DNA from: a virus
IMG/VR virus record: IMGVR_UViG_3300021591_000018
Coordinates: 1-64,000 of that record
Length of the DNA stretch: 64,000 bases
Direction: 5' to 3' (one strand)
Positions 17,453-60,984 of this stretch are shown one piece after another. A program made the position numbers and the translations under genes. A model generated the notes under the pieces. That model had not been told where the DNA came from. It did no database searches and was given only the letters and a program-made list of their open reading frames with translations. Numbering within the stretch: the stretch's first letter is position 1; the number at the start of each line of letters is the position of its first letter.

Positions 17453-18041
17453 CTCCTTTGTAACAGCTCCATGTCAACTCGTATGGGACATCTAAATATG
17501 CACCTAGTCGCACAATGTCAGACTTGTACTTCGAGACGAATGGTACCAATACCTTGAAGTCCGGATCGTCGAGTGCCAACTTTAACGTCTGTTCTAATGC
17601 GTTTACGAATTCTGCACGACAGTCAGGATAAACGCCTCTGTCGCTGTAGTGTGCAGCATACGCTACTGCTTTGGCACCAATCGACTGTGCGATACCAGCA
17701 GCGATCGATAGTAAGATCATGTTGCGATTCGGTACGACTGTCACTGCCAACGTATCGTAGTGCTCAGCAGTCTCAGGAACTTCAGGTACGTTGATACTCG
17801 GTGTTGTTAGTGCAGAACGCAACCACTTTCCAAGCTCAGGTAACTCAACGTACAGCCAGTCGACACCTAACGAATGTGCGATCTTCCTTGCTGCATGAAC
17901 TTCCTTACTGTGTCTCTGGCCGTAGTTGATGGTCAGTGCGGTTACGTCGAAGTCCAATTCCTTCTTGAGGTAGTATAGCAACGTGCTGCTGTCAATCCCG
18001 CCAGACAGCAGCGAAATGACTTTCAACTTATTCGCCTCCAT
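17358..18041 (-). CDS. queC: 7-cyano-7-deazaguanine synthase
   Basis: LLSGGIDS, YGQRH, VPNRN, YPDCR, TWSCY...CGVCSSCRER. Start moved to MEANK. Confidence 0.95.
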   Translation of the reverse strand: MEANKLKVISLLSGGIDSSTLLYYLKKELDFDVTALTINYGQRHSKEVHAARKIAHSLGVDWLYVELPELGKWLRSALTTPSINVPEVPETAEHYDTLAVTVVPNRNMILLSIAAGIAQSIGAKAVAYAAHYSDRGVYPDCRAEFVNALEQTLKLALDDPDFKVLVPFVSKYKSDIVRLGAYLDVPYELTWSCYKGGEKHCGVCSSCRERKRAFREAGVIDPTEYLD

Positions 18042-18612
18042 AGTGCTTCTTCCGTAAGTTGAAGAACTCCTCACGTGCAGCTGGATTCCAGAGGAACACA
18101 CCCCGACAAGCTGAACAAACGTACGGTCTTGGTTGGAAGCCTTCGACCATCTTGCAGGTGTGGACTGCTGACGAGACGACTATCACACCGTACGGCTTTG
18201 CGGCTTCCCAGAGTTCATCTGCAATCTGTGCAGTCATTCGCTCCTGTATCTGGAAGCGTAGTGCGTACTTCTCGACCAGTTGGTCGAGCTTCGACAAACC
18301 GACGACTCTCTCCTTTGGTATGTAGCCGATGTCAACGGTACCGTAGAAAGGCATGAAGTGATGTTCGCACAACGTTGTAAATGGGATCCCAAATTCAGCT
18401 ACAAGGTCAGCCTTACCCTCGTATTGTCTCCAGAGTTTCACCTCACGATTGTAGCCCTCCGTGAAACGCAGCCACGTTGTCGCAATTCGTATCGGTGTTC
18501 TACGTAAGTCCTCAGACTCTGGATCCAGTCCTAGTATCTCGATTATCTCCTTGATGTGTTCTGCGATCTTCTTGGCTCTCTCATCCTCTTCATACGGTTC
18601 CAACAGACTCAT
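18028..18612 (-). CDS. folE: GTP cyclohydrolase I
   Basis: TPIR, LCEHHFMPFYG, GLSKL, QERMTAQIA, HTC. Confidence 0.95.
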   Translation of the reverse strand: MSLLEPYEEDERAKKIAEHIKEIIEILGLDPESEDLRRTPIRIATTWLRFTEGYNREVKLWRQYEGKADLVAEFGIPFTTLCEHHFMPFYGTVDIGYIPKERVVGLSKLDQLVEKYALRFQIQERMTAQIADELWEAAKPYGVIVVSSAVHTCKMVEGFQPRPYVCSACRGVFLWNPAAREEFFNLRKKHYGGE

Positions 18613-19301
18613 TTTCCAGGTTCACCTCCCCAGATTAGATAGTGCAATTGAGGCAATATTCGCACATCATACTCAGGAAGATAGGAAGTTGACCATTCGA
18701 ACAACTTCTCGAGGAACTTCATATAGCCGAATTCTGAGGCAGTCTTCGATTCAGGTTGTAATACAACCGTTACAGCACTTTCAAGTTCATATAGGATGTC
18801 TCTAACTTCCCAAAGATCTGCTGGACGAGTTATGACGAACTTCAAGTAGGACTCATTTCCATAGAGTTCAGATTGCTCAACAATATAGTTCAATACGTCC
18901 ATCTTAACTGCATCGGGAATGCCTGAGTTTTTGAGTTTTGGCGACACACTCCAAACGTCAACCACCTCTAACAACCCATCGGATGGCTTAATCGTACCAT
19001 TCGTCTCTACCATCAATGGAAAGAAGTCTGTCTTGTTTAGGAACTCTGTGAGTTCCTCGTGATCCTGGAGGAGTGGTTCACCTCCAGTCAGAACGAGTGC
19101 ATCCTCCTCGAGCCCTTGTACTGATACCACCCGGTAAAGTTTATCGACCGTGATGTCATGTCCTCCAGCCCATGCGTACTTCGAGTCGCACCACTTACAG
19201 CGCAAATTACATCCAGCAAACCGTACGAAGACTGACGGTTTGCCAATGTACAAGCCCTCGCCCTGGATGCTACGGAAGATCTCAACTACCTTCAAAGCCA
19301 T
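18609..19301 (-). CDS. queE: 7-carboxy-7-deazaguanine synthase (radical SAM)
   Basis: EIFRSIQGEG...FVRFAGCNLRCKWCDS, TGGEPLLQ, ETNGT, SPKL, PQLH. Confidence 0.95.
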   Translation of the reverse strand: MALKVVEIFRSIQGEGLYIGKPSVFVRFAGCNLRCKWCDSKYAWAGGHDITVDKLYRVVSVQGLEEDALVLTGGEPLLQDHEELTEFLNKTDFFPLMVETNGTIKPSDGLLEVVDVWSVSPKLKNSGIPDAVKMDVLNYIVEQSELYGNESYLKFVITRPADLWEVRDILYELESAVTVVLQPESKTASEFGYMKFLEKLFEWSTSYLPEYDVRILPQLHYLIWGGEPGK

Positions 19302-19720
19302 CGCACAGTCACCCCTTGAGTTGGACCTTCTGATATCGAGATCGCGGACACGACTTCATATCCAACTGCTCCATCGATTGCAAGTTTGATCTCCTGTGCA
19401 AGCCCCTCGACGGTTGTGTAACGGACCGGTTTGAGATTGTCGACAAGCGGTTTCGCTTGCGTACGACTTTCATATATTAATCTCTGAAAGAGCTCCATAT
19501 AGTCTTCAGGTATCAGTAACTTATGATCGAAGTTCTCCTTTATTGCTTTCTTCACGATTCCAAAGTCAACTGACATACCGATTTCGTCCAACCTATCGAC
19601 AACCAACTCAACAGTAACGAAGTACGTATGTCCATGTATACCTCCACATTTCGGATGCCCTGGAATAAAGTGAGCTGCTTCGAATGTCGTCTCAACAGTC
19701 AATCTCATACGAGGTTCCAT
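19292..19720 (-). CDS. queD: 6-carboxy-tetrahydropterin synthase
   Basis: FEAAH...KCGGIHGHTY, DFG, FDH, TVEGLA. Confidence 0.92.
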   Translation of the reverse strand: MEPRMRLTVETTFEAAHFIPGHPKCGGIHGHTYFVTVELVVDRLDEIGMSVDFGIVKKAIKENFDHKLLIPEDYMELFQRLIYESRTQAKPLVDNLKPVRYTTVEGLAQEIKLAIDGAVGYEVVSAISISEGPTQGVTVRWL

Positions 19721-28724: not shown

Positions 28725-28976
28725 TCAGGCATAGATTCCCGATGGTGCCTCAGACTCGTCGTAGCCATAGCCTTGTTGTGTTAGTCGCTTGGCGATCTCG
28801 AGACATCCAATCCGTGATGGCAGACTGAGTGTCTCGAGGAGATTTAGGATTGCAGTTAGTACGGCTACAGAGCGATTCTCCTCTCGCTCAATAGGCCGTA
28901 TGAGTTTGACGAGCTGTTCGACTTGCCTGTTGATGACCTCGGCTATCTGTTCTCCATTAAGTTCTTCTCGATCCAA
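28725..28976 (-). CDS. Hypothetical protein
   Basis: 83 aa ORF with GGAGG SD. Confidence 0.55.
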   Translation of the reverse strand: MDREELNGEQIAEVINRQVEQLVKLIRPIEREENRSVAVLTAILNLLETLSLPSRIGCLEIAKRLTQQGYGYDESEAPSGIYA

Positions 28977-29464
28977 CGTCCGACCTCCTCAAGTTGCTCG
29001 AGGCTTTTTGCACGATAGCAACATATCTTACCGGTGCTGAAAATGTTCAATGTCACACCGAGCTCTGGCAAACGCAAAGTTGCAGCTGGAAACGTCTCCG
29101 GTTCGTAGACGACGTTGTCGAATTTCTGCCAGAGGTCCTCGAGAATGACTGTTCGGTGAAGGTCGAAGTAAGCTACGACTTGAGCGATACGCACGTCGAC
29201 AACCTCAACGTTGTTGTAATATCTTTTAATGAGCTCCATAAGTTCATCGACGTATTTTTGATAGTTTGCAGACTTAATTCCGTTAAGTGTCACTTTTCCT
29301 GACTCTGCTAAGATAGCACGTACACCTGATGGTAACTTGAAGAAGACAGCAGTGAATCTCCACGGATCATACTTTGCCTTCGGTATGACTTGTGCAACTT
29401 CGTCGAGGTCGAATCTCCTGTTCAACTGCACTACGACTACACAGTTCTTGATGGTGTAGTCCAT
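28943..29464 (-). CDS. tbp: TATA-binding protein homolog
   Basis: Two TBP repeats: NCVV...YDPWRFTAV...SGKVTLNG and QVVA...YEPETFPAA...IFSTGKI. Confidence 0.9.
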   Translation of the reverse strand: MDYTIKNCVVVVQLNRRFDLDEVAQVIPKAKYDPWRFTAVFFKLPSGVRAILAESGKVTLNGIKSANYQKYVDELMELIKRYYNNVEVVDVRIAQVVAYFDLHRTVILEDLWQKFDNVVYEPETFPAATLRLPELGVTLNIFSTGKICCYRAKSLEQLEEVGRWIEKNLMENR

Positions 29465-30021
29465 CAGACATCACCAGCTATGAGTGCTTTGAACTCACGC
29501 TTCATCAACTCACGTAACGGTGGTGAAGGATGTGTGTCTGTTGGAACATAGTACTCGCGTACAACGTAAATCACCCAGAGATTAAGGTTGTCGATGCTAG
29601 CTTCGTCAGGAAAGTTCGACTCAAGCACTTTGACGAGCTTTATTGCCTGACATCGCTTCAGCCCAATCCGTAGTGTGAAGTAACCATTTCTTGCAGAGAG
29701 CAACAGAAAGTCAGGGTCGACTCTTGGTGTCCTTGCTACGATCGTGAATACTGTTCGGAAGTCTCGTTTCGTCAAGCTCAATGCTGTTAAGTGGACAGAA
29801 CCTTCAGTTTCTGACGACTTAAAGACGTAGATCGTCGGTAGTCCGTACTCTACTTGTATCTCCTGTAGCTTATTGAGGACGAACTGTACCTCGTCTTTCG
29901 GTATAGCGTCGAAGTCCCAGATTGTTACGTGTTTGTTTCCTTCGACTACGCTGCACACACCGTATGTGATCTCCATACGTTCACCTCTGCTGATTATTCG
30001 GATATGAAATCTCGATTCCAA
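29464..30021 (-). CDS. Possible minimal archaeo-eukaryotic primase-like protein
   Basis: hhhDFD, S...H, VD..F, TLR arrangement resembles AEP motifs I-III. Confidence 0.45.
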   Translation of the reverse strand: MESRFHIRIISRGERMEITYGVCSVVEGNKHVTIWDFDAIPKDEVQFVLNKLQEIQVEYGLPTIYVFKSSETEGSVHLTALSLTKRDFRTVFTIVARTPRVDPDFLLLSARNGYFTLRIGLKRCQAIKLVKVLESNFPDEASIDNLNLWVIYVVREYYVPTDTHPSPPLRELMKREFKALIAGDV

Positions 30022-32734
30022 ATATCGGGCTACTCGTTCTTGACTTTTCGACGTACCTTAGTGCAATTTCGCCAAGAAACTTGGTACACGCTGAGATTAT
30101 TCGAGCGTTGAGCATCTTACGTAACTGTTCCTCGGTTAACCCAACTTTACGTGCTTGTTCGACGACTGTGTCTGGGAGTATAACTTTAATATTGATCTCC
30201 ATTGCGGACCCTCAGCAATCGTTATACATGTAACGATAATATGCATGCATACATAGTAAGAAACCAATAACCAGCTGAAGTAACACAAGTAGCACCACGA
30301 TGGTTGTGTTGCGAAAAAGCGGATTGCTTAAGACTATGAGTAACGTCACAAGAGTGCCTGGAATTATCGTCACTACACCGATGAAAGTCTCAAATTCTGG
30401 ATTGTGTAGCAACTTCAAGAGTTTCTGTGGAAGCATCGTCACGAATTCAAGGATCGTCGACAGCAACCACTTCCAGAAACCCATCACCTCACCTCCAGGT
30501 ATGATCGCCTAACTCCATCCGACTCAACATACGATGGATACGGTACCCATACTCGCTTGCACTTGTAGCATCGAATCGGTCTCCTCATGTCTGTGACATT
30601 TCGAGCTCCACAGATACACTGGAATACACCAAGACGGACTTGTGTCGCTCGAACTGCTCGTTTACCTGTCACCGGTAATGCTCCGCATATGTTGACCCAT
30701 TCGGGGTGGTTAGTTAAACAAAACTCGTATCTCTTACAAGTTCCATCTTTACGCTTCATCCAGTTGGGAAGGAAGGGACACCGGTAACTTGATGCCATGC
30801 TCTCTCACACATCCTTCGGATTTCTGATTCAGGGAGGAAATAACCTCGTCTCTCAGCTTCACGCATTGCTAATTGGACCATCTCCTCAAAGTTGGTTATG
30901 GATCGTGCTAACTCAACGAGGTAGTCTTCGAATGGAAGCTCCTCTTCGACTGTCTCTGGTTTTGTAACTGACTCACCGGATATCTTTCTCTCGATCATCT
31001 GTATTAGGTGCTCACGACACAAATTATGACCAAACATATGAACGATAGCACGGTTGTTGCAGAAGTCACACTCGAGGTACGATGTAGTCGGTAGGACTTT
31101 CATTTCTTCTTCACGTATCTTTGGAACGGTTAGTCGTTGTGATTCGACGTCAGCATCAACCCTCTCTGGCGGTTTGTAGAAGTATCGTTTACATCTCGGA
31201 CAACTTCTCGGATTTGCTACTCGTGGTTTCCAAACGAACCCACAGTATGGACACTTTAGTGGCATGTGGAATCCCTCGTAACCTTGACGACTTTCCATTC
31301 GTTGGACGATTTGATATAGTTACATTCGACATAGATCACGGGACAGTTTGGATTCGAACAGTGAAACTTAGTCGAGTGTGATCCTCTCGCTTTCTTTAAT
31401 GGACGGTTACAGTCAGGGCAACGTATGATGCCATACGGGAACTTCATGTCTAGTCCCGTGTAAGATATTTGAACTTCTCGACTGTCTCAGGATCAACAAT
31501 CCCGATCTTTTCACTCGTTGGACGTTTACGGTAGAGCATCCGACGTCCTTGCTTCATGATCTGTACGTAACCAATATCCATCAGATACGTAAGTGCGGAA
31601 TATGCGGTTCTCGTTGATATGCCTGCTTCCTTTGCAATTTCCTCGACTGACTGGAACTGTGTTTCTGTAAGTGCTGACTTCACTTTCTGTATGCTTTTAT
31701 TGCTTACACGTAGGGTACCTTTCTGAAAGCCTCTCCGAGTCTCGATCCAGAGCGACTGTCTATGGCTAACGGTTCCGAAGATTTCGCTCAGTTGACGGTA
31801 GAGTTCCTTCGCTTCTTCCATAGAAAGTACGAGTTCAGTCTCACCTACACAAAGTCGTATACACCTCGTGATCTCGATATTCATCCTATCACCTCAGTGC
31901 ACACTTCACACAGAGCACTTCTCCGGTTCTGAGATCAACAGCTTTCGGTTCCCATTTACCGATTTCTCTTCCACACTTAGAACAGTATGGTGGTTTCGTC
32001 ACGAACTTGACGCCTTCCTCGATGAGCTTCTCATGTATCTGTCTCGCTAAGTCGCTGTTCTTGTATTGGAAAGCACAATAGTACGTTCCATAATCACCTT
32101 CACCGACAGCCTCGGCTATGAGTCCACCCCAAAACCTCCAAGTCGCTCTGTAAGGCTTGTCAAGTCCAGGAAATAGGATTTCCTCACCGGCTACGACAGT
32201 CCAGAGAGCTTTCCCAACCTCTTTAGTCCGTTCGAAGTGCTTATCGAGGAAAGAACGGAGGAAGTCAATTACATATCGACTTGGTTCACTCATTTCTCCT
32301 CGCCCTCTCAAACAACGCAGCGATGAACGCCTCCGTCGGTCTGTAAAATTGCTTTCTGATCATCTGTCTCGCCTTCTCTAAGTCGCCTTCTAAGATTTCA
32401 TCCAGGATATCAACAAGTCGTCGCTCTTCGAGTGAGATCATGCCATAAGGCCTATAAGGCCAATCGCGAGTAATGGCGTCTCTCAGTTCGCGAACTACTT
32501 CAAGCCGTGCCTTATGATTCGACACTCCGATCACCTACGAGGATCTCTTTTAGAGTTTGAATCGTCTCCTCTAACCGTCTTTCTAGCGATTGAAAATACT
32601 CGAGTTCTCGTTCGGCTTCTTCTCGCTTGGACCGTAGAAACTCCAAGAGGTCGTAGAGCACATCCAACATCTAGCTCACCTTTGAAGTTCTCACGTTCTA
32701 ACTTGGTAATGCTTCGACTATCGATAACTTCCAA
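29981..32734 (-). other. Run of small hypothetical ORFs (29981-30202, 30212-30487 membrane, 30484-30798, 30756-31298, 31256-31447, 31450-31884 wHTH, 31889-32311, 32286-32534), several with CxxC Zn ribbons
   Basis: Tightly abutting - strand ORFs with GGTGA/GAGG SD motifs. Confidence 0.6.
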
Positions 32735-32737
32735 CTT

Positions 32738-33142
32738 CTAGATATGACAGTCGACGATTACGACTAGTGCATCGGGATTTACATCCTTAATTACTTCGTG
32801 GAAGTCGAAGCTCTTCGTACCTTCGATTGACTCCCACCATCGTCCGTACCAAACTCCATTCTTAAGTACACAGGGTGGTTCGTCCATAGCGTCCCAGTTA
32901 ACGTACTTCGCATAAGTTGCATTACACCGTGGTTCATAGGCCGGTACATCAAGTTCTCTCAGTGGAATCCAGCCTGAATACCGACCTCCTATCACGTACC
33001 AGTCCCAGTGCCCTTGTGGGTTGTGAGGATAACTATCCACAACTTCAAGCTCTTCCCAGAACGGCATCATGGCTTCGTGTACGTCCTCAACAAGTGACTC
33101 AAGTTTACCGTGATCTATGATAACGAGTAACGGGTAATGCAT
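32738..33142 (-). CDS. Conserved viral hypothetical protein
   Basis: NPQGHWDWYVIGGRYSG...VIVDCH motif, familiar from phage proteins. Confidence 0.65.
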   Translation of the reverse strand: MHYPLLVIIDHGKLESLVEDVHEAMMPFWEELEVVDSYPHNPQGHWDWYVIGGRYSGWIPLRELDVPAYEPRCNATYAKYVNWDAMDEPPCVLKNGVWYGRWWESIEGTKSFDFHEVIKDVNPDALVVIVDCHI

Positions 33143-33676: not shown

Positions 33677-33967
33677 CTACACCTCCAAAGTGTAAGATCG
33701 CGGATCACCTGCCTTACAGAGAGCACCGATCCAGATTAATCCAAGAGTTCCGCGCATATCAGGATTGTAATATTGAGGTTCATCATAATCCGAATAGAAC
33801 TTATACCACTCACGGAGATAACGAAGTTCTGAGAGAAAGATTAGAGTTGCTTTGACGTAAACCTTTAACATTTCCAAGGCTCGTTTTACGAAGGGTTGAC
33901 TCAAGAACCTACGATATCGTTCAGTAGGAACAAAGACAAGTCTCTCAGTCATGTCTGAAGAGCTCAT
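33677..33967 (-). CDS. Hypothetical protein
   Basis: 96 aa ORF within the gene run. Confidence 0.5.
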   Translation of the reverse strand: MSSSDMTERLVFVPTERYRRFLSQPFVKRALEMLKVYVKATLIFLSELRYLREWYKFYSDYDEPQYYNPDMRGTLGLIWIGALCKAGDPRSYTLEV

Positions 33968-34544
33968 TTCGATACCTCAAGATTACTCTGGACAGCAAAT
34001 ACTCGGCAATTACACGGAACGCACACTTTCCAATTGCTGGTACGTATAGTCCACACCGTTCGTTACATGGTTCTAAGGTTTCAGTAGCGGCAGATAGGAA
34101 CGGACAGATCATCTCGACTTCCTCTGTCTTCTCTTCTTTCCCGTACTCTCTGTAGCCAGGTGGTACCTTTCCATCTAGGATGAGTCCAGCGACATTCTGC
34201 TCTCTCGGAACCCACTGGAAGCTTGCCATCTGTACCGACTTCAGAAGTTCTTTAGCTACATCATGGTAAAGGTAAAGTGGAGCCTTATGTACACTGTAAT
34301 GTCCAGTCATCTGTTCGATAACGAGCTGTGAGTCCCCGACGAATTCAACATTCCTTTGTTTGTTACGGAAGATTGCGTAGATGAGTGCCAAGTACTCTGC
34401 TTGGTTGTGAGTCCTCGGTATCGGTAGCCCTAGCATATCTGAAACTTCTCTGAAGGACTTTATGATGTATTGCTTTGTTGTCTCATTGGCTATACAAATC
34501 TGTTCGGTCTTCATGCTCGCATCGAAGTAGACCCTTTGCATCAC
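33945..34544 (-). CDS. rnhA: RNase HI-family protein with C-terminal Cys-rich domain
   Basis: YFDAS, THNQAEYLAL, GDSQLVIEQM, WVPREQN. Confidence 0.85.
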   Translation of the reverse strand: MMQRVYFDASMKTEQICIANETTKQYIIKSFREVSDMLGLPIPRTHNQAEYLALIYAIFRNKQRNVEFVGDSQLVIEQMTGHYSVHKAPLYLYHDVAKELLKSVQMASFQWVPREQNVAGLILDGKVPPGYREYGKEEKTEEVEMICPFLSAATETLEPCNERCGLYVPAIGKCAFRVIAEYLLSRVILRYRNELFRHD

Positions 34545-52800: not shown

Positions 52801-53288
52801 TCTAGTCTTGTCATCGTCATCAAGTACGATCCAACAGTTGTTGTCGCTGGCTTCTAGTCGAATCTTTAGCTTTCCAATTTGCCGTTCGGGTTTGATGTTT
52901 AGGGTTTCGAGTAACATCCTCAATCGATTCAAGTCGGTCATATTCCTAACCTCCTCTTCCACTCCTCGACCATCTCTTGGAGTGTATGACCACAAACTCG
53001 ACAACGTTTAGTGTTCCAATCGTAACTCCATTCACAGAATGGACAGCCTTTCTTATAGGCATAGAACCTGAGAATGAAATCATCGTCGAGAAAGACACGG
53101 AGAATCTCCTCAGGATCCGTACGATAAGAGAACGTCAGAATGAAGGTTTGATCTCCATCACATACTGTTAAATATACGAAGATGTCTTTAGGTTGCCACT
53201 CCAGTTTAACTGTTAGCTTACCGAGTCGACGTGTTGGGCTGACGTTTAAGATGTTCGTTAAATGGATGAGCTTCTGAATGTCCGTCAC
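49803..53288 (-). other. Run of hypothetical ORFs (49936-50211, 50204-50392, 50394-50603, 50659-51441, 51425-52318, 52311-52562, 52564-53004, 52938-53288)
   Basis: The last two and the C-terminus of 51425-52318 share L.I.P.+.LG+L...L...DD..I..FY...C..C. Confidence 0.65.
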
Positions 53289-53734
53289 TCGTTTACCTCC
53301 TTTATCTTCCTAACCTGCGACTTATGCATCTTTACGGGTAGTAGGGATTTAGCCTCATCGAACTGGACGATGATGTTGTTTCCTTCAACAGCAATTACTG
53401 TGCCTCTCATACCTCGCATAAGTCCTGTGACGACCTCCACTCTGTCGTTGACGTTGTAAGTCACTTCAGGTGGTCTTACGAGTCGTTCAACTTCTTCGAC
53501 TGTGACCATTCCTGGGAGAATCCCTCGAATCCATCGACACCCATCCTTGTATGTTTCGGAGACTAACTGTCGAACGTACTCGTAGTACTGTGTCTCGATG
53601 TAAATGTAACCAGGCGTTCTGTCAGAGAATATCATCGAGGTTATTGGGATGTTTGTCCGTTCAGCTACATCTGCTAACCAGTGTGCTGTTGCCTCTTCCT
53701 GATCCCTTAACACACGGATTACGAAGAAAGGCAA
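53285..53734 (-). CDS. spt5: Transcription elongation factor Spt5/NusG homolog
   Basis: NGN domain (V+V..DQE...PGYIYIE...GILPG.V..EEV) plus KOW (DRVEVVTGLMRGMRGTV). Confidence 0.85.
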   Translation of the reverse strand: MPFFVIRVLRDQEEATAHWLADVAERTNIPITSMIFSDRTPGYIYIETQYYEYVRQLVSETYKDGCRWIRGILPGMVTVEEVERLVRPPEVTYNVNDRVEVVTGLMRGMRGTVIAVEGNNIIVQFDEAKSLLPVKMHKSQVRKIKEVNE

Positions 53735-54828: not shown

Positions 54829-55185
54829 TCACTCGGTGTTTGCTGGTCTGAAGACGTAGATGCGAGGTCCGAGTCCCTCGATTATGCCAACCTGGACGTC
54901 GGGATCCTTGTCTAGCCGCTCGATTAAGGCGTAGACCTGGGGGTTGTGGATAACGCCTTGCTTCGCGTCGTATTGTGACATGACCTGCTTGATCTGCCGG
55001 AATGTCAGTCCTATGTTTCTCTTGCCAGCCTCGACGAGGGCCTTCTTGATACCCTCGTAGTCAAACCTCCGTCGGGTCAGTCGACTGCGCTCCTTTAGTG
55101 ACTTTAGGGATGTCGGGTCAATCTTCACGCCCAGCTTGCTTAGGTCGATCTTTGCGTCCTTGTGTTCACTCATTATTCTCACCAT
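54829..55185 (-). CDS. Basic wHTH-like protein
   Basis: LTFRQIKQVM...NPQVYALIERL. Confidence 0.6.
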   Translation of the reverse strand: MVRIMSEHKDAKIDLSKLGVKIDPTSLKSLKERSRLTRRRFDYEGIKKALVEAGKRNIGLTFRQIKQVMSQYDAKQGVIHNPQVYALIERLDKDPDVQVGIIEGLGPRIYVFRPANTE

Positions 55186-55825
55186 TTTCCTCTCTTACTA
55201 AAACTTCTTTAATCGACTTTATGTGTCCCTCGTAGTAGAGTTTCTTCAGTAGCTTGACAGTTCCGTACGTTGTCAGTACTGTCGTTCCATCTTCGAGGTA
55301 CAGTCGTACTCTATACTTGATGTTTGGCCAGTTCCACCACTCTCCCTCGATGATCGGTTCGATGGCAGTCACTCCGAGTGATCTGAGTATCATTGCGTTG
55401 ATCGGCAATCCTGTCTTCGTTCTGTACCGTATCCAATGTGTGACCTTCTGCTTGAATCGTCTGACGTCCTTTCTGTAGCCTTCTTTGAGTTTCCGTTCCC
55501 TCCATCGTCTGAAGACGCTGTCCTGGTACTCACCCCATCGTTCACGTAGAATCTTACGTCGTTCCTCTGCCTTTCGTAGTGCTTCCTTGTGTCGTTCGAT
55601 ACGTCGCTTCATGATCTCCTCGACAGTCAATAATTCGAGTTTCTGTGCCTCTCTGTAGCTTGTCAGTACATAGCCTTTGATGTTGATTCCCTCGATTGTA
55701 TGACTTAGTGGCTTTGCCTGTTGGATGTCGTGTCCTGTCAACTGTATGCCGAATGTCGAGTGCTGGATACGTCGATAGCGTTTCTCTGTCTTTGGTTCTT
55801 CGAAGTCTATCTCTTCACTCATCAC
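55166..55825 (-). CDS. Basic hypothetical protein
   Basis: 219 aa ORF. Confidence 0.65.
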   Translation of the reverse strand: MMSEEIDFEEPKTEKRYRRIQHSTFGIQLTGHDIQQAKPLSHTIEGINIKGYVLTSYREAQKLELLTVEEIMKRRIERHKEALRKAEERRKILRERWGEYQDSVFRRWRERKLKEGYRKDVRRFKQKVTHWIRYRTKTGLPINAMILRSLGVTAIEPIIEGEWWNWPNIKYRVRLYLEDGTTVLTTYGTVKLLKKLYYEGHIKSIKEVLVREENGENNE

Positions 55826-55977
55826 TTTCCACCCTTCTTTAACTCTTTGACGATCTTCTCACAGACAGTACGTGCACATCGAATGTCCTCAGCTACCTGT
55901 TGTGCATAGTTCGTAAGAAACGCTAGTAAGAACTCCGTCTCCTCAGACGTTAACTTGATGGTAATTTCATCTTTCAT
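55822..55977 (-). CDS. Small hypothetical protein (51 aa)
   Basis: Not in track. MKDEITIKLTSEETEFLLAFL...KELKKGGK*. Confidence 0.55.
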   Translation of the reverse strand: MKDEITIKLTSEETEFLLAFLTNYAQQVAEDIRCARTVCEKIVKELKKGGK

Positions 55978-56003
55978 CTCACTATCCACCCTTAACTAAA
56001 AAT

Positions 56004-56282
56004 TTAAGGTGAGTTTGGCTGTGGTATTGGTCTCAGTCTACCGTTCATCAACGCATACGCGTACCTCGTTATGACTTTGATTCCAGTGACAGGGCACTCC
56101 ATGTACCAGATGTCGACGCCATCCTTCGTCTCAACTTTGACCTTCCATGCTAGATCGTTTGGTTGACATTTCCGACATCGCAGACATCGTATCCTCATGG
56201 CTGCCATGGTCCTATTCGTTACGACTGTCTGATTATTCGGACTTAAGTCGTTCCAATTCATCTTAATCACCATCATCTTCAC
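56004..56282 (-). CDS. Small Cys-rich early protein (normal-composition paralog)
   Basis: CLRCRKC...WKVKVE..DGVDIWYMEC. Confidence 0.7.
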   Translation of the reverse strand: MKMMVIKMNWNDLSPNNQTVVTNRTMAAMRIRCLRCRKCQPNDLAWKVKVETKDGVDIWYMECPVTGIKVITRYAYALMNGRLRPIPQPNSP

Positions 56283-56290
56283 TTAAAAAT

Positions 56291-56698
56291 TTAGGAGGTA
56301 ACGTATCCAAACTGTTCCACTGAGTTACTGTAAACAACGTATACATTAACCCATGTTAGCTTGTGATAATCGAATGCATCTGCAACCTTCTTTACTGCAT
56401 ATATTTCAGCTCTACTCTCTACAGCCATCTTTCGGCAATAGCCTGGTAGGTCGTCAACGCACTCGGTTTCAATTCTTTGAAAGGTAGCTACCGCAAATCC
56501 TGCGTCTTCAAGCACCTTTCGTTGAGCTTCGAAACACTGATAATGTCTGTCGAGCTCTTTTACTCTCGCTTCAAGGTCTTTCTTCGTTATTACAACTCTC
56601 AGATAGTGCGGGTTGATGCATCTCCAGATTAAGGACTTAATTTTGTCCAAAGCACGAATTAGTTCGTAATTGATTTCAAACTTCATCTTAATCACCAT
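56291..56698 (-). CDS. Hypothetical early protein
   Basis: 135 aa ORF following a cassette repeat. Confidence 0.65.
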   Translation of the reverse strand: MVIKMKFEINYELIRALDKIKSLIWRCINPHYLRVVITKKDLEARVKELDRHYQCFEAQRKVLEDAGFAVATFQRIETECVDDLPGYCRKMAVESRAEIYAVKKVADAFDYHKLTWVNVYVVYSNSVEQFGYVTS

Positions 56699-56728
56699 TA
56701 TCCACCCTTACTCAAAATAAAAAACAAA

Positions 56729-56998
56729 TCAAATCCAACCTCTTCCTCTATTCCTCATCAAACCTCTCAATCTTCCACTAATCAAATTATACACTCTCAC
56801 CTTCCTATCTTCACACTCCATACACCACACATCCACTCCTTCTACCACCTCTACTTTCATTCTCCATTTCAACACATTACTTCCCTTACATCTCCCACAA
56901 CTCAAACATATCCCTCTACATACTCTCAAAACATCTCTTCCTACAACTAAATCAAACCCATCCTCACTCTTCCTAACCTCATTACCAAACCAACTCAT
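56729..56998 (-). CDS. C-free early gene, Cys-rich paralog of 56004-56282
   Basis: CLSCGRC...WRMKVEVVEGVDVWCMEC; no A/P/T/Q/H residues. Confidence 0.75.
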   Translation of the reverse strand: MSWFGNEVRKSEDGFDLVVGRDVLRVCRGICLSCGRCKGSNVLKWRMKVEVVEGVDVWCMECEDRKVRVYNLISGRLRGLMRNRGRGWI

Positions 56999-57035
56999 AT
57001 AATCACCATTATCCTCCCTTCACTAAAAAATTTTT

Positions 57036-57311
57036 TCAAAACATACCTAACTCACACATTCTATAAAACCACTCCCAACTCCTAAACCAACTCCAACACC
57101 CATTTCTCAACCTTACTTTCAAAATCCTACCACTATACAAATCTACAATAACCTTCTCACAATATCCTTTCCAACCTACCACTCTTAATCCATCACATAC
57201 CTTCTTCCCAAACCTATTAAACTCACACTTCCTACAAATCTCCTCTAATCTCTCCAAACCTAATCTACTTTCAACCCTAACCTTCATCATCCAACTCTCC
57301 ATCTTTAACAC
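57036..57311 (-). CDS. C-free early gene
   Basis: 91 aa, CRKC...C...C; no A/P/T/Q/H. Confidence 0.65.
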   Translation of the reverse strand: MLKMESWMMKVRVESRLGLERLEEICRKCEFNRFGKKVCDGLRVVGWKGYCEKVIVDLYSGRILKVRLRNGCWSWFRSWEWFYRMCELGMF

Positions 57312-57535
57312 CTCACTCTTAACCCTTTAACCCAATTTATCAACTCACCTACCTCCTCACTATTCAAACCTTCAATCTCAACCATATTTCTACTCCAATC
57401 ATAACTAAACCCACACCTATACTTCCTCTCACCTTCCTCTACCCACAAACCAACCTCCTCTAACATTTCCCTCCTCAAATCCCAAATTCTCACAATATAC
57501 AATCCATTCAACCTCATAACATTAACAACTACCAC
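57305..57535 (-). CDS. C-free early gene
   Basis: 76 aa with GGTGAT SD; no A/P/T/Q/H. Confidence 0.65.
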   Translation of the reverse strand: MVVVNVMRLNGLYIVRIWDLRREMLEEVGLWVEEGERKYRCGFSYDWSRNMVEIEGLNSEEVGELINWVKGLRVRC

Positions 57536-57579
57536 CTTTAATCACCACTATTCACCCTTTCTTAAAAAAACAAACAAAC

Positions 57580-57771
57580 CTAAATAACCCTTACACCCCT
57601 ATACTCACACTCAATACCCCACAACTCACCACCTTTCTTACCTTTCCTAACCACCACCTTCCACATCCCACCTTTACAATCTTCATACCTACTACAATTC
57701 TTACAAATACCCCTTAAACAACCCAAAAAATTCTTTTCAACTCTTATAACCTTAACAAACCTATCATACAT
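57580..57771 (-). CDS. C-free early gene, Cys-rich paralog
   Basis: RGICKNC...C...WKVVV...LWGIEC...VRV. Confidence 0.7.
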   Translation of the reverse strand: MYDRFVKVIRVEKNFLGCLRGICKNCSRYEDCKGGMWKVVVRKGKKGGELWGIECEYRGVRVI

Positions 57772-57985
57772 CTATATCACCATTCTCTTCCCTTTACAAA
57801 AATCACCTTTACAATATCTATCAATTCTTTCTTTCGGTCTCTTCCCCACGTGTCCCCGTGAAATTGGTTAGACGAACTGAAAACGGAAACTCAAACCGCA
57901 CGTACGACCTAAGAACCCGACAGTTAGCGGACATTGACAGTCGGTCAACACACATAAATATCAGTAAACAGTCAATATCTACAGC

Positions 57986-58447
57986 TTGGACTGTAAAGTC
58001 TGTCAGTTGCCGGATGCCCCGGAGATCGTAAGACGTATCAAAGCCAACGAAATCTCAATAGCCGAAGGAGCGAAGCTACTCGGTGTTAGTTACCGAGAAC
58101 TCTGGTTGCACCTTAAGAATTGTGTGGTCGACAAGCCACGCGAAACTTCAGTTGATACACTCCAACTACTCGAGGAATTGCTGCGCATCCTACGACAGAA
58201 GCTGCTTGAGCTCGACAGAATGGAAGTCTCAACAGCCAACATTTCCGCTCTTGCTAAAGTCGCCGACAGTCTACGGAAGACTTGCATGGACATCGAGCGT
58301 CTAACAGGTAAATTAAGAGCGGCACCGCTTATACAGCTGCAGAAGATCACCATCCACTACGAGAACCTTCTACAGATCATCTCAACGGAACTTTGTCCTG
58401 AATGTCGGCGTAAAGTCCTGAAGAAGCTCGAGGCGATGACAGTATGA
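57986..58447 (+). CDS. Putative terminase small subunit
   Basis: CKVC...HTH...HLKNC and coiled coil; ATGA-coupled to TerL. Confidence 0.65.
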   Translation: MDCKVCQLPDAPEIVRRIKANEISIAEGAKLLGVSYRELWLHLKNCVVDKPRETSVDTLQLLEELLRILRQKLLELDRMEVSTANISALAKVADSLRKTCMDIERLTGKLRAAPLIQLQKITIHYENLLQIISTELCPECRRKVLKKLEAMTV

Positions 58448-60984
58448 TCGATCCGAGAGAGAAAACCATCAAGATACTAAAAGCATTAGAAGACCCTGTC
58501 TACTTCTGTGAAGACGAGTACTTTCTCGGTGCGAAGCTCTACCCGAAGCAAGCTGAGGTGCTACGGAAGTTCTATAACGGTGGATACAATGAACTTGTAC
58601 TCATCGCCGGGATGAGATGTCTTTCACCAGAAACCATCATCTACACAAACCCGTATCCAAAGCCGCTGAAGGAGTTGAACGAGGACGACCTTGTTCTTAC
58701 GTTCCGTAACGGTAAATTCGAGTGGTGCAGATGCCAACTCATACGTCAACGCGCACGTATGGTCTACCGTCTTGTAACGTACTCAGGACGTGAAATCTAC
58801 GCAACTGAGAATCACCCGATTCTAACGTCGAGAGGCTGGATGACGGTTTCATCAATGCTCGAATCGACCTCGTTACCTTACGTTGCAATGTGCCACAAAG
58901 TTCCTCCACCACTTCACCCAATACACGATCCAGATTATGCGACTGCTGTTGCCCTATTCCTCTCAGAGGGTTGCTGGATAACTTCGACTCCACTCTTCTC
59001 GAATCGTGACCCTGAGCTGATCGACACTTTGCGAACTGTACTAAAACGTCGATTTAATGGAGAGTTACGTGGAGGACCGAAGGACTTTCGCATCATAAGT
59101 AAACAATTCCGTGAGGAGCTACATGAACTAAAAGGCAAGAAGTCCGCTGAGAAGTTCATCCCAAAGAGAGTCTTCGAACTTGACGATGAAAGTCTTAAGA
59201 AATTCATCTACTACTTCTGGAGAGGTGACGGTGGAATCGAAGGTGGTAAAGTTCACTTCTACAGCACAAGCAAGCGCTTACTGCAACAGCTACAATTTCT
59301 CCTCCTCCGATTCGGGATACGTAGCTACTTACGTAGACGTCCACAGTACAAATACTACAAACGTGCGCACCCAGAAATGAAGAGTACGAATGAGAGTTAC
59401 GATCTCGTCGTACATGACGACATTTCAACGATCATTCCTGAGGCACCAAGGTGTCAACATAATGGCACATCACCAATGGATAAAATCGGACTCAAGTTAA
59501 GAGACCTTCGAGAAATTTGTGAAACCTCACTCTGGAAGCTACGTCAGCTTATGTGTACGAACACAAAGAACACCATAAGCTTAAAGAATGCACGTAAGAT
59601 TGCTCATCTCATACCAATGTTCGGATGGGAAGACGTTTACTTCGAACCAATCGTTAGGATCGAGCCTATCGGAGTTCGTGAGACGTACGACTTATCTGTA
59701 CCTCATGAAGGTCATGCATTCGTCGCGAATGGTATCATCGTTCATAACAGTGGCAAGACATTTCTCGCTTCTTGTTTCGCAGCTTACGAGGCGTTCAAGC
59801 TCTTGATTAAGCCTGACCCAGCTGCCTACTACAACCTGGCTCCAGGTAGTCCGATCTTCATTGTCGTAGTTGCGACTTCTGAGAAGCAGGCTTACGATAC
59901 GATATTCAACGAAATTAAACAAAAGTTAATGAGAAGTCCGTTCTTCCGTGAGTATCATCCACGATTCCTCATGAACGAAATCATCTTCCAGTCAAAGAAT
60001 GTACGCATACTCTGTGGTACGTCTTCATCTGCCTCATTAGTAGGTCGAAACGTTAAGTTAGCGATTTTTGACGAGCTGGCTCGATTCGAAGAGTCAACCA
60101 GTAAGAGAGGAGCTTGGGAAGTTTACACGTCATTGAAACGTTCAACTGCAACCTTTGGAAAGGAGGGCTACTGCATTTCGATTTCCTCGATCCGTCATCC
60201 AAATGACATTATGATGACTCTCTATCGTCAAGCTCAGACTAACCCAAGGATGTTCGCACTTAAGTTTGCCACGTGGGAGTTCAACCCAAACTTCAAACTC
60301 GAGGACTTTAAGTTCGAACTTCAACGAGACCCACTTGCATTCTGGAGAGACTTCGGTTCGAAGCCGTTTGCTGGTCAAGCACCCTTCTTCGCTAACATTG
60401 ACGTCGTACCCTTCGATAGCAGTATACCAAACAACCTTGAGCTGCTCGCACGTGGAGAGAAGACCTACTTCAATGAGGAGGCAACCTATGTCTTGGCTGG
60501 TGACCCTGCTATTCGCCATGATGCATTCGGACTCGCTATCGTCCATGAAGTTGAACCTGGTCAGTACGTTTGCGACGGACTTTACCGTTTCAAACCAATG
60601 GGGACCGACCTTTCTCCAGTCGAGATAAAGAACTTCATCCTTCGCGTACTTGACCACTGTAACGTCATAACTGCAGTTTTCGACACCTGGAACTTCCCAG
60701 AACTACAGGAGGAAATTCGCTCACATGGTGTCGAAGTGCTCAACCACATCGTCCGTAAGGAAGATTACGATCGCTTCAAAGAATTCTGTTTCAAACGGTG
60801 CATCCGAATATGTGACTATCCAATTCTTCGTCAGGAACTCGAACAACTTCAAATTGTCAATGTCAAGAGGGTTGATCACCCACCTGGTGGAAGCAAAGAC
60901 GTTGCCGATGCATTAGTCAATGCTCTATGGGCGATTTCCGAATTTCAACCTGAGCTACCGTTGAACGTGGCGGTGATCGTATGA
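58444..60984 (+). CDS. Terminase large subunit containing an intein
   Basis: LYPKQ; AGMR|SGKT Walker A split by the intein; IFDELA Walker B; GDPA...D; DHPPGGSKDVADA nuclease end. Confidence 0.92.
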   Translation: MIDPREKTIKILKALEDPVYFCEDEYFLGAKLYPKQAEVLRKFYNGGYNELVLIAGMRCLSPETIIYTNPYPKPLKELNEDDLVLTFRNGKFEWCRCQLIRQRARMVYRLVTYSGREIYATENHPILTSRGWMTVSSMLESTSLPYVAMCHKVPPPLHPIHDPDYATAVALFLSEGCWITSTPLFSNRDPELIDTLRTVLKRRFNGELRGGPKDFRIISKQFREELHELKGKKSAEKFIPKRVFELDDESLKKFIYYFWRGDGGIEGGKVHFYSTSKRLLQQLQFLLLRFGIRSYLRRRPQYKYYKRAHPEMKSTNESYDLVVHDDISTIIPEAPRCQHNGTSPMDKIGLKLRDLREICETSLWKLRQLMCTNTKNTISLKNARKIAHLIPMFGWEDVYFEPIVRIEPIGVRETYDLSVPHEGHAFVANGIIVHNSGKTFLASCFAAYEAFKLLIKPDPAAYYNLAPGSPIFIVVVATSEKQAYDTIFNEIKQKLMRSPFFREYHPRFLMNEIIFQSKNVRILCGTSSSASLVGRNVKLAIFDELARFEESTSKRGAWEVYTSLKRSTATFGKEGYCISISSIRHPNDIMMTLYRQAQTNPRMFALKFATWEFNPNFKLEDFKFELQRDPLAFWRDFGSKPFAGQAPFFANIDVVPFDSSIPNNLELLARGEKTYFNEEATYVLAGDPAIRHDAFGLAIVHEVEPGQYVCDGLYRFKPMGTDLSPVEIKNFILRVLDHCNVITAVFDTWNFPELQEEIRSHGVEVLNHIVRKEDYDRFKEFCFKRCIRICDYPILRQELEQLQIVNVKRVDHPPGGSKDVADALVNALWAISEFQPELPLNVAVIV
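58618..59748 (+). mobile_element. Intein with LAGLIDADG homing endonuclease (377 aa)
   Basis: Starts CLSPET; block B ATENHPIL; LFLSEG and FWRGDGG; TYDLSV; ends IIVHN followed by S. Confidence 0.95.

Follow-up and report, generated by a model that had tools for sequence, protein, structure and literature searches.

Synthetic G-less and C-less cassettes serve in in vitro transcription, including that by archaeal RNA polymerase (e.g. PMC4495717), and literature searches for natural cytosine-free or guanine-free tracts returned only such constructs. With the viral tract analysed here, C-less cassettes share an RNA that lacks one nucleotide, could be made without the corresponding NTP and would halt the polymerase at the first occurrence of that nucleotide. 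The viral tract, in contrast, is natural, extends over 1.2 kb, encodes four proteins and is maintained by selection in many viruses; the polymerase is predicted to halt 14 nt into its gene 5.

A second group for comparison comprises the 7-deazaguanine viruses (phage 9g, CAjan, HVTV-1, CP220 and immuto_2-6A; PMC6884629, PMC10516641), which, like the virus studied here, carry FolE, QueD, QueE and QueC. In the tract of the present virus, one strand holds no modifiable base. The virus differs from the others in that no DpdA of a described subfamily was detected. No published link between modification and base composition was found, and most QueC viruses are tract-less.

The PeSL (promoter-early stem-loop) cassettes of T4-type phages, reportedly described by Arbiol et al. 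in 2010, resemble the locus in their arrays of tiny early ORFs, conserved regulatory junctions and shuffling between related genomes. The signals in the tract are, however, archaeal (a T-run or TATA-like element with GGTGAT), a stem-loop is impossible in C-free RNA, and the description of PeSL contains no compositional rule. Restriction-site avoidance is known from leading regions such as the first-step-transfer DNA of T5 and the early region of T7 with gene 0.3. The tract likewise holds putative early genes near a probable packaging end and can contain no G/C palindrome, but in it a base is excluded rather than sites, the exclusion is specific to strand and gene, and in a relative it switches strand with gene direction. 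Finally, loading of the sense strand with purines, or with G over C, and Rho-avoiding composition are known in bacteria; to our knowledge, archaea lack Rho. An excess of G over C on the sense strand is shared, extending across the genome in several relatives, whereas the exclusion in the tract is absolute, local and sharply bounded.

Extent and authenticity of the tract

The window, i.e. the whole 64,000-nt stretch of DNA that was analysed, derives from a hydrothermal-vent habitat and belongs to an archaeal head-tailed virus, whose leftward block carries the replication and early genes. A preliminary description, made from the letters alone, had noted 1163 nt of + strand without G, beginning abruptly about 150 nt from the small terminase subunit gene (TerS). 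Both observations were borne out. The tract (C 429, A 389, T 345) has one edge 150 nt before the TerS start and the other 14 nt inside gene 5 (Table 1). Elsewhere in the window, G-free runs reach at most 50 nt, and stretches that lack A, C or T are never longer than 33 nt. Given the G content of the window (21.9%), the chance probability of such a tract is approximately 1e-124; it is the only one in the whole 76,753-nt record. For the leftward genes, the sense strand lacks C throughout, i.e. in the leader, the spacers and the four ORFs, the untranslated portions amounting to 175 nt. The boundaries are sharp, the flanking genes having 20% C. On the sense strand, G has for the most part taken the place of C (sense G 37–42%), and T has not. 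No Rfam families were found within 55000–58600.

The tract is real and is not an assembly artefact. It is covered by assembled Logan contigs from three other hydrothermal-vent runs: a contig from run X2 spans 939 nt with 4 differences, contigs from X3 span 333 and 779 nt and are identical, and one from X5 spans 649 nt with 9 differences, no change to G being among those listed. Variant contigs that branch off within the tract run on into different G-free sequence. These separate contigs, together with an 84% identical homologue of one tract protein that keeps the 15-letter alphabet, exclude the artefact that the preliminary description had named as a possible refutation. A bisulfite-type artefact was also ruled out, since C makes up 37% of the + strand, unlike the pattern of G-to-A conversion.

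Genes, leader and spacers

Table 1. Features of the tract and its genome (window coordinates)
Feature	Position	Strand	Basis or remarks
preQ0 synthesis cluster QueC, FolE, QueE, QueD	17358–19720	−	
Viral TATA-binding protein (TBP)	28943–29464	−	
RNase H-like gene	33945–34544		
Viral Spt5 homologue (NGN + KOW)	53285–53734	−	About 3 kb downstream, same leftward block
Ordinary-composition paralogue of genes 1 and 4, 85 aa from ATG 56261	56004–56261	−	P0002; same junction motif
Gene 5, 131 aa	56291–56686	−	Only first 14 nt in tract; remainder of ordinary C content
G-free tract (C-free sense strand for leftward genes)	56673–57835	.	Zero G in 1163 nt
C-free spacer ahead of gene 5	56687–56728	−	Sequence; T-run and junction motif
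Gene 4, 89 aa, CxxCxxC...C family	56729–56998	−	ORF; homologue P0001; model pLDDT 83
C-free spacer	56999–57035	−	Sequence; AAAAAATTTTTT and junction motif
Gene 3, 88 aa from ATG 57302, divergent CxxC family member	57036–57302	−	ORF; SD GAGGTG
Gene 2, 76 aa	57305–57535	−	ORF; relatives searched, none found
C-free spacer	57536–57579	−	Sequence; T-run, then AAGGGTGAATAGTGGTGAT junction motif
Gene 1, 63 aa, small CxxCxxC...C family member	57580–57771	−	ORF and family profile
C-free leader and putative promoter region, first cassette	57772–57835	−	Purine-rich, TATA-like, two GGTGAT motifs
Small terminase subunit (TerS)	57986–58447	+	Divergent from tract; synteny with TerL; homologues adjoin tract in relatives
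Large terminase subunit (TerL) with LAGLIDADG intein	58444–60984	+	

Four − strand ORFs occupy 82% of the tract, each preceded by a GGTGAT-type Shine-Dalgarno sequence, and their proteins use 15 amino acids, A, P, T, Q and H all being absent, in agreement with the preliminary description. With only A, G and T available, stops make up 10.3% of codons, and the probability of 316 open codons is approximately 1e-15. All four are real genes. Gene 3 starts 3 nt past the gene 2 stop; the ORF list has it as 91 aa from a GTG. Searches of Pfam and PHROGs gave no matches for the four proteins.

Each cassette combines a T-run and a conserved junction motif with a GGTGAT ribosome-binding site and one or two ORFs. 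The junction reads T-run, AAGGG.G.ATA.TGGTGAT, 4–5 nt and start codon, and is present in five copies in the window (o63, o76, o89, o131 and o92), which thus holds small ORFs with conserved regulatory junctions in the manner of PeSL. The arrangement AAAAAATTTTTT..GGTGA..ATG was found again in a relative (G051). Upstream of ...GAAAGAAAGAATTGATAGATATTG in the leader, C returns abruptly. The C-free zone appears to extend upstream of every plausible transcription start, into promoter DNA, and promoters here retain G on the non-template strand. As a whole, the tract is an array of small, swappable cassettes at the promoter-proximal start of a 44-kb leftward block, 'immediate-early' by position.

Genes 1, 3 and 4 belong to a family with the conserved core R..C..C..C ... 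W ... W..EC ... RV. In its alignment C34 and C62 are invariant, and C31, C37, R28, W45 and W58 occur in at least 90% of sequences. An hmmsearch recovered 17 clusters (E 1e-33 to 8e-4); taking one representative per 50%-identity cluster, 11 of the 17 lack A, P, T, Q and H. The gene 4 homologue P0001, from another assembly, is 84% identical, and none of its approximately 13 substitutions is to one of those five residues. An AlphaFold model of the 89-aa protein (pLDDT 83) had no PDB match at E<=0.001. It is apparent that a related protein is encoded twice, C-free inside the tract and by a paralogue of ordinary composition just outside it.

Tracts in related viruses

G-free tracts of 0.9 to more than 1.9 kb, or else G-free patches, occur in no fewer than seven related virus lineages and in the same place, where the leftward early block begins at its promoter-proximal end beside the TerS gene. 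On the TerL strand, they lie upstream of TerS in every case. The tracts measure at least 1900 nt in L008, 1778 nt with one G in G051, 1004 nt in L020, 915 nt with two G in L029, at least 907 nt in L111, 885 nt in G058, and 859, 257 and 155 nt in L113; G052 and G054 have patches. Gene content at this position is unrelated from lineage to lineage, and the terminases of tract-bearing viruses are just 35–45% identical, approximately. The C-free tract is a lineage trait. Exchange of cassettes between close relatives is seen in L020 and L029, which are 95% identical in TerS/TerL and yet have a stretch of about 300 nt swapped for unrelated sequence, and in the contigs that branch inside the tract. 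Among the proteins that relatives encode with the same reduced alphabet are a GNAT acetyltransferase (Pfam E 1.8e-12) and one with a probable SLOG domain, the latter under the Pfam cut-off.

In G052 the TerS sense strand, which is the opposite DNA strand, is C-poor too (8%), so that depletion moves to the other strand when gene direction does. In L113, a gene that contains C lies between C-free ones, and the two kinds alternate in both L113 and G052. C-poor relatives show a graded depletion (7–15% C) spanning several kb, and no dinucleotide-context rule was found for the C that remains in them. Records L017–L020 and L029 are probably from non-vent samples, as judged from record names and a GC content of 41%, L020 and L029 forming a digester lineage, and the same rule probably holds there. 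Purifying selection clears every C from the sense strand, which is to say every G from the transcribed strand, and does so gene by gene, within and between ORFs, in many of these viruses. Because the depletion follows the sense strand, includes spacers and is context-free, selection acts on individual cytosines of the transcript or on individual guanines of its template. Causes at the level of translation or tRNA were rejected, since C is likewise absent from the 175 nt that are not translated.

7-Deazaguanine genes and their distribution

The preliminary description had proposed that the genome encodes a modification of G, and this was upheld in part. The genes for preQ0 synthesis, FolE, QueE, QueD and QueC, are all present and adjacent (PF01227, 7.9e-50; PF01242, 1.9e-20; radical SAM, 4e-9; PF06508, 9.6e-65). 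DpdA is the signature protein of 7-deazaguanine DNA modification (PMC10516641); searches for this transglycosylase (PF01702, PF20314) gave no match at E<=1 in the record, which is 69% complete, nor in any of five relatives, among them a genome of 95% completeness. Candidates for DpdA were considered and rejected: a 325-aa neighbour of the que genes is a trypsin-like protease, another neighbour, conserved and 392 aa long, is an MCM-like AAA+ ATPase, and a conserved ORF of 256–288 aa in G052, G053 and G055 is FolE2. A third ORF neighbouring the cluster (211 aa) has no assignment.

Viral Spt5 and TBP, both invoked beforehand, are indeed encoded, as is a family-B polymerase (PolB). The genes for PolB, the MCM-like helicase, TBP and Spt5 have ordinary template G. 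No RNA polymerase of viral origin is apparent, and a TerL search of genome contigs for the host gave a single distant bacterial match.

A test for co-occurrence of tracts with que genes had also been suggested. Within the clade the two co-occur, in few and phylogenetically linked genomes: the que genes are found in the genome of the window, G051, G052, G053, G055, G056, G058 and G061, and all four tract-bearing genomes with long contigs (that of the window, G051, G052 and G058) are among them, whereas none of the three complete que-negative relatives (G057, G059, G060) has a tract or strong depletion. G053 and G055 have que genes with early regions that are merely C-poor, not C-free. A search that included a positive control covered 50 further viral records with QueC, of which 19 are at least 90% complete, and found no G- or C-free run of 100 nt in any of them; six cultured QueC-positive phages and haloviruses have no tract either. 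Flavobacterium phage immuto_2-6A, in which all G is replaced (PMC10516641), has just a single small gene that nearly lacks C on the sense strand, and the neighbours of that gene have 8–33% C. No coding tract was found in Campylobacter phage CP220, in which all G is replaced.

Possible explanations for the absence of C

The explanation that we prefer, tentatively and at less than even confidence, ties the C-free rule to 7-deazaguanine chemistry, the naive host polymerase reading a G-free template for the first genes. The viruses are predicted to make preQ0 or CDG and probably to place either in their DNA instead of G. Unprepared host RNA polymerase, TBP and TFB could then transcribe the very first genes of virion DNA fast, ahead of viral TBP and Spt5 and of fresh DNA copies; G-containing genes further along would come after them, at a slower pace or from copies already replicated. 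In a variant, the modification would be merely permissive: 7-deaza-G cannot form Hoogsteen pairs and would stop the G-rich non-template strand from forming G-quadruplexes or R-loops. C-free genes existing for some other reason would in that way be tolerable.

The nearly C-free gene of immuto_2-6A, the sole fully G-replaced cultured phage examined in detail, is consistent with this explanation, as is the inhibition of bacterial RNA polymerases on 7-deazaguanine, which was strongest with mid-sized 7-substituents (PMC4838386), and the proposal of a template freed of modifiable G, as first put forward, is partly supported by the que genes. Several results count against it. With no DpdA-type transglycosylase in the genome or five relatives, DNA modification is predicted only, and the 50 other QueC viruses and six cultured ones lack tracts. 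In bacterial RNA polymerases, 7-substituted 7-deazaguanine inhibits initiation and leaves elongation unaffected (PMC4838386); the promoters here keep G on the non-template strand. Replication genes with template G must, moreover, be expressed from incoming DNA before copies exist. The fully G-replaced phages immuto_2-6A and CP220 transcribe G-containing genes, so that modified template G is readable, at least in bacteria. It is possible, but doubtful, that C-free immediate-early genes are a general viral strategy in both domains, coupled to 7-deazaguanine genomes with either a bare template or a permissive modification.

A second explanation, also possible though we would not expect it to prove correct, is immunity at the level of RNA, the earliest messages being safe from factors that are directed at C or need CTP. 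That C-free mRNA requires no CTP, escapes such factors and cannot form G-C structure is true as a matter of logic, as had been pointed out. Candidates would be a C-dependent endoribonuclease or mRNA interferase (C occurs in many cleavage motifs), aCPSF1/FttA, chain terminators of the ddhCTP type, or low CTP in starved hosts. The depletion tracks the sense strand in both directions, gene by gene, in untranslated parts and regardless of context, so that every C counts; the same protein is coded C-free inside the tract and ordinarily just outside; and the graded depletion in relatives fits a cost per C. The RNA of the tract has essentially no structure (MFE −0.07 versus −0.27 kcal/mol per nt). 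As for aCPSF1/FttA, cuts preferring CA could lead to decay or to premature termination before viral Spt5 is present: the Pyrococcus abyssi enzyme cleaves single-stranded RNA preferentially at CA (PMC3553952), and Spt5, whose viral homologue is encoded about 3 kb downstream, bridges FttA termination (PMC11616081). In the termination complex, however, FttA binds and cuts U-rich RNA (PMC11616081), and the tract RNA is 33% U; the idea that it evades FttA is thereby weakened. The analysis identified neither a C-specific nuclease nor a viperin or an enzyme that depletes CTP, and with no viral RNA polymerase shown, we infer that ddhCTP would strike the host equally. Immunity of the RNA also leaves the que genes of all tract-bearing genomes unexplained, and the C-free zone appears to reach promoter DNA upstream of any plausible transcription start.

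Avoidance of defence at the level of DNA seems improbable. On this reading the tract would lead the viral DNA into the cell, the premise being that DNA packaged last, next to the packaging site, enters first, and it would be restriction-proof while its anti-defence genes are expressed. The earlier statement that no G/C-containing palindromic site can occur is correct as logic, and the same applies to mixed G+C sites. The position adjoining TerS is kept in all lineages with genes read away from the junction, the small, fast-evolving, cassette-like ORFs resemble anti-defence loci, and the 95% complete assembly of G055 breaks exactly at this junction. Five assemblies, on the other hand, continue through it, and that of G058 is circularly closed, the tract lying in its interior. 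AT-only palindromes are present in the tract (TTAA 11 times, TATA 9 times). Every G is excluded whatever its neighbours, with no motif rule in C-poor relatives, whereas avoidance of sites needs less; what is excluded is the base itself. The alternation of C-free and C-containing genes (L113, G052) leaves no continuous protected segment, and in G052 the depletion swaps strand with gene direction.

Protection of the non-template strand is very improbable. Very heavy early transcription would keep that strand single-stranded for much of the time and expose its C to deamination to uracil, which is rapid at the temperatures of vents, or to single-stranded DNA deaminases, until C is purged; archaeal family-B polymerases stall at template uracil. 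It is indeed C that the non-template strand lacks, the virus comes from a hydrothermal habitat and has a family-B polymerase, and promoter-proximal DNA seems C-free as well. Against this, C has given way mostly to G and not to T, the sharp boundaries follow genes, and the same rule probably holds in non-vent samples.

A replication origin, at which G-rich, C-free RNA hybrids would prime replication and be processed by the viral RNase H-like protein, is highly unlikely: sense G of 37%, the RNase H-like gene and the location at the strand-switch point are in keeping with it, but the tract has no G-quadruplex motif (G3+ x4 type), is filled by real ORFs with ribosome-binding sites and is gene-wise and patchy in relatives, and total absence of C would be unnecessary. 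Absence of function, be it an extreme neutral transcription-linked skew (purine loading), for which the genome-wide G>C skew of relatives speaks, or an assembly or chemical artefact, is scarcely credible in view of the edges against 20% C flanks, the replacement of C by G rather than T, the maintenance of ORFs, the 15-letter alphabet of homologues and the agreement of several separate runs and studies.

Implications

No published account of natural C-free early viral genes was found in literature searches. Working proteins are encoded here with three nucleotides and 15 amino acids, and the maintenance of this by selection implies a strong factor, of which no description in print was found, that penalizes each C in early viral message or each G in the template. 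Its identification would bring to light either an effect of viral DNA hypermodification on transcription that is new or a new activity of host or virus directed at C in RNA. If the preferred explanation is true, DNA modification shapes the genetic text to a 15-amino-acid proteome for a whole gene class. The paralogue pairs, C-free inside the tract and ordinary outside, constitute a ready natural experiment, and the tracts are natural C-less cassettes usable in archaeal transcription assays. The G-free strand is nearly free of stop codons, TAA being the sole kind, and gene callers will therefore report long false antisense ORFs on it, such as the 342-aa frame in L020.

Composition and setting of the tract

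The + strand of the window contains no G between positions 56673 and 57835 (1163 nt; C 429, A 389, T 345), and the leftward genes located there (genes 1–4) are without C on the sense strand. Given 21.9% G in the window, the probability of such a tract by chance is approximately 1e–124. The second-longest G-free run on the + strand is 50 nt, no run lacking A, C or T exceeds 33 nt in the window, and no second tract exists in the whole 76,753-nt record (IMG/VR; linear, estimated to be 69% complete). In an A/G/T alphabet stops represent 10.3% of codons, and the probability of 316 open codons is approximately 1e–15. The proteins use 15 amino acids. The leader and three spacers (175 nt in total) likewise have no C in the sense strand; because these untranslated sequences obey the rule too, it operates on nucleic acid and not on translation. 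The preliminary description, of a complex tract with four – strand ORFs devoid of Ala, Pro, Thr, Gln and His, beginning abruptly about 150 nt from TerS, was accurate: the sequence is non-repetitive, and 150 nt separate it from the TerS start.

The genes of the window show it to belong to a head-tailed archaeal virus. Structural and packaging genes, among them TerS, TerL and portal, run rightward. The leftward block (44 kb), of which the tract is the opening 1.2 kb, encodes a family-B polymerase, an MCM-like AAA+ protein, NrdD, TBP, an RNase H-like protein, an Spt5 homologue and the FolE-QueE-QueD-QueC cluster. The upstream tract edge is sharp and falls at a TATA-like, purine-rich stretch 64 nt ahead of the first start codon; downstream, the tract ends 14 nt inside gene 5. 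Beyond this end, sense-strand C is 12% and 17% in successive 500-nt bins, the first of which still overlaps part of the tract, and approximately 20% within about 2 kb.

Tract genes share a junction composed of a T-run (often AAAAAATTTTTT), AAGGG.G.ATA.TGGTGAT, 4–5 nt and the start codon. The complement of GGTGAT occurs at the 3′ end of archaeal 16S rRNA. The same junction is found upstream of gene 5 (start 56686) and of the gene after it (start 56261), both of ordinary composition. Gene 3 is coupled to gene 2, its ATG lying 3 nt after the gene 2 stop. Predicted folding at 37 °C was –0.07 kcal/mol per nt for tract RNA, as against –0.27 for control genes, and no structure was predicted at 70 °C; on these models the tract RNA would be nearly structure-free. 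An Rfam search over 55000–58600 gave no family match.

Features of the window, and G-free tracts of related viral genomes (G) and of related loci on other contigs (L)
Feature	Position or length	Strand	Remarks
Protease, trypsin-like serine, 325 aa	15934–16911	–	near que cluster
FolE-QueE-QueD-QueC	17358–19720	–	entire preQ0 pathway
MCM-like AAA+, 392 aa	20006–21184	–	PPGxSKT Walker A, Walker B, arginine-finger-like motifs
TBP	28943–29464	–	viral
Spt5, 149 aa	53285–53734	–	viral homologue; NGN + KOW
Ordinary-composition paralogue	56004–56261	–	just outside tract
Genes 1–4 (63, 76, 88, 89 aa)	within 56673–57835	–	occupy 82% of tract
TerS	57986–58447	+	divergent from tract
TerL with LAGLIDADG intein	58444–60984	+	Intein_splicing, LAGLIDADG_3
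L008	at least 1900 nt	TerL strand	G-free; ORFs 108, 122, 50, 266 aa
G051	1778 nt	TerL strand	one G; TerL 72% identical to window's
L020	1004 nt	TerL strand	G-free
L017/L018/L029	915 nt	TerL strand	two G; single virus
L111	at least 907 nt	TerL strand	G-free
G058	885 nt	TerL strand	G-free; complete genome
L113	859 + 257 + 155 nt	TerL strand	G-free
G052, G054	patches, 85–355 nt		G-free; several kb with C-poor sense strand (about 4–15% C)

Authenticity and conservation of the tract

The tract stretch was present in contigs from hydrothermal-vent metagenomes of nine studies. Contigs of three sequencing runs apart from the probable source were compared with it: 939 nt with 4 differences (X2), 333 and 779 nt with none (X3), and 649 nt with 9, no listed change being to G (X5). 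Contigs that diverge within the tract (loose ends at 56691, 56804, 57026 and 57775) run on into different G-free sequence. Another assembly yielded P0001, a protein with 84% identity to the 89-aa ORF; none of its approximately 13 substitutions is to Ala, Pro, Thr, Gln or His. A bisulfite-like artefact is ruled out, because G on the + strand was lost mainly to C (37% C) and not to A. The tract is genuine, under strong selection, and conserved throughout the lineage.

Relatives were obtained by a TerL-alignment search of metagenome and IMG/VR contigs. Many carry a G-free tract on the TerL strand immediately upstream of TerS, and others have 5–16% C at that location; the tract is a lineage trait at a fixed position. 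Tract genes of separate lineages are not related to one another. Between the window and G051, TerS, TerL and portal align at 66–69% and the tracts are unalignable; between L020 and L029, 95% identical in TerS/TerL, approximately 300 nt are swapped for unrelated sequence, both versions G-free.

Genes 1, 4 and, divergently, 3 form one small-protein family (core R..C..C..C ... W ... W..EC ... RV), of which 17 clusters were found when 1.8 billion representatives were searched with a profile. All five amino acids are absent from 11 of these, one has a single Thr, and five are ordinary, including the paralogue at 56004–56261. G051 has the same layout, with a C-free copy within its tract and an ordinary one right past it. 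The AlphaFold model of the 89-aa protein was confident (pLDDT 83), and a PDB search with it gave no match. Two C-free – strand genes elsewhere encode a GNAT acetyltransferase in the 15-letter alphabet (L119:7936–8220, 94 aa, Pfam E 1.8e–12) and a 177-aa protein that is probably SLOG/YspA-like (L112:8594–9127; E 1.3e–5, below the Pfam cut-off).

Since TAA is the only stop codon on a G-free strand, long false antisense ORFs occur there, for example 342 aa in L020:1–1029 (+) and others on the L019 and L013 + strands. Gene callers will mis-annotate such tracts. Full-text literature searches turned up just the G-less/C-less cassettes of the laboratory, from which this natural tract differs, and no natural coding tract free of cytosine or guanine; no published description of the present tract was found.

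Nature of the constraint

The constraint tracks the sense strand: the rightward TerS gene of G052 is C-poor as well (8% C, 42% G). It acts gene by gene, as one C-containing gene is flanked by C-free ones in L113, and C-free and C-poor genes are intermixed in G052. No dinucleotide was missing from the leftover C of C-poor relatives. Depletion is nearly step-like in the window and G051, and graded in some genomes with a peak near the junction (G052, sense C from approximately 19% to 7%). Taken together, these results indicate a cost per C in the transcript or per G in the template, and speak against both site avoidance and a feature of one uninterrupted piece of DNA.

The template-strand possibility was favoured in the preliminary description, in which viral DNA is G-modified and a G-free template can be read by naive host RNAP before viral Spt5 and TBP exist. 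The genome does encode the full preQ0 pathway, which is also complete in G051, G052, G053 and G061; in G055, G056 and G058, QueD and QueE at least are present. (G055 also has FolE2; its lack of QueC points to CDG, not preQ0, as the product.) Among tract-bearing genomes, the four with long contigs all carry que genes, and three complete que-negative relatives found via the MCM-like protein (G057, G059, G060) have neither tract nor strong depletion. The cultured Flavobacterium phage immuto_2-6A has all of its G replaced (PMC10516641), and its gene 128 (MW353175.1 68330–68686; L205:1831–2187) has 5 C in 357 nt of sense strand.

Against a simple causal reading, no DpdA of any described subfamily (TGT, DUF6610) was found in this genome (69% complete) or five relatives, so that, for this whole clade of archaeal tailed viruses with 7-deazaguanine synthesis genes, either an undescribed transglycosylase or a different use of the product must be envisaged. 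A 100-nt run was present in none of 50 other QueC-carrying IMG/VR records (a positive control was run), HVTV-1, HCTV-1, phi3ST:2, JenK1, KVP40 and MS1 had none either, and the sole run in CP220 was AT-rich, non-coding and 111 nt long. The small genes adjoining gene 128 of immuto_2-6A have 8–33% C. With bacterial polymerases, 7-substituted 7-deazaguanine inhibited initiation and not elongation (PMC4838386). Template G is at ordinary levels in the replication and transcription genes of the virus itself. From this evidence both ways, the que genes therefore look necessary but not sufficient, and the link remains suggestive. The G-free-template mechanism is, tentatively, the best single candidate, although less likely than not.

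A cause in the RNA, such as a C-dependent nuclease, decay or termination, or CTP shortage, is possible but doubtful. It would account for the anatomy equally well, and gains slightly from the viral Spt5 and from the CA preference of Pyrococcus abyssi aCPSF1 (PMC3553952), but FttA selects U-rich RNA (PMC11616081) and the que genes are left without explanation. Restriction-proof leading DNA (improbable), shielding of an exposed non-template strand (likewise improbable), an R-loop origin (very improbable) and neutral skew (the least credible) each failed at least one test.

Other features of the genomes

The TerL intein is inserted immediately upstream of the ...SGKT Walker A motif; TerL of L002 and L008 is without one. 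G051 also has Spt5 and TBP, 34% and 36% identical to those of the window. The 392-aa MCM-like protein was present in 11 of 11 related genomes (30–70% identity) and is a good marker of the viral clade. Just one ORF, a 211-aa unknown, separates the protease from QueC, and this neighbourhood is kept in G051 (61% identity). PolB of G051 (about 29609–32962, –) matches in two pieces approximately 940 nt apart, a possible intein or insert, and QueC of G053 (10393–10986, –) matches PF06508 in two pieces within a single open frame, a possible insertion.
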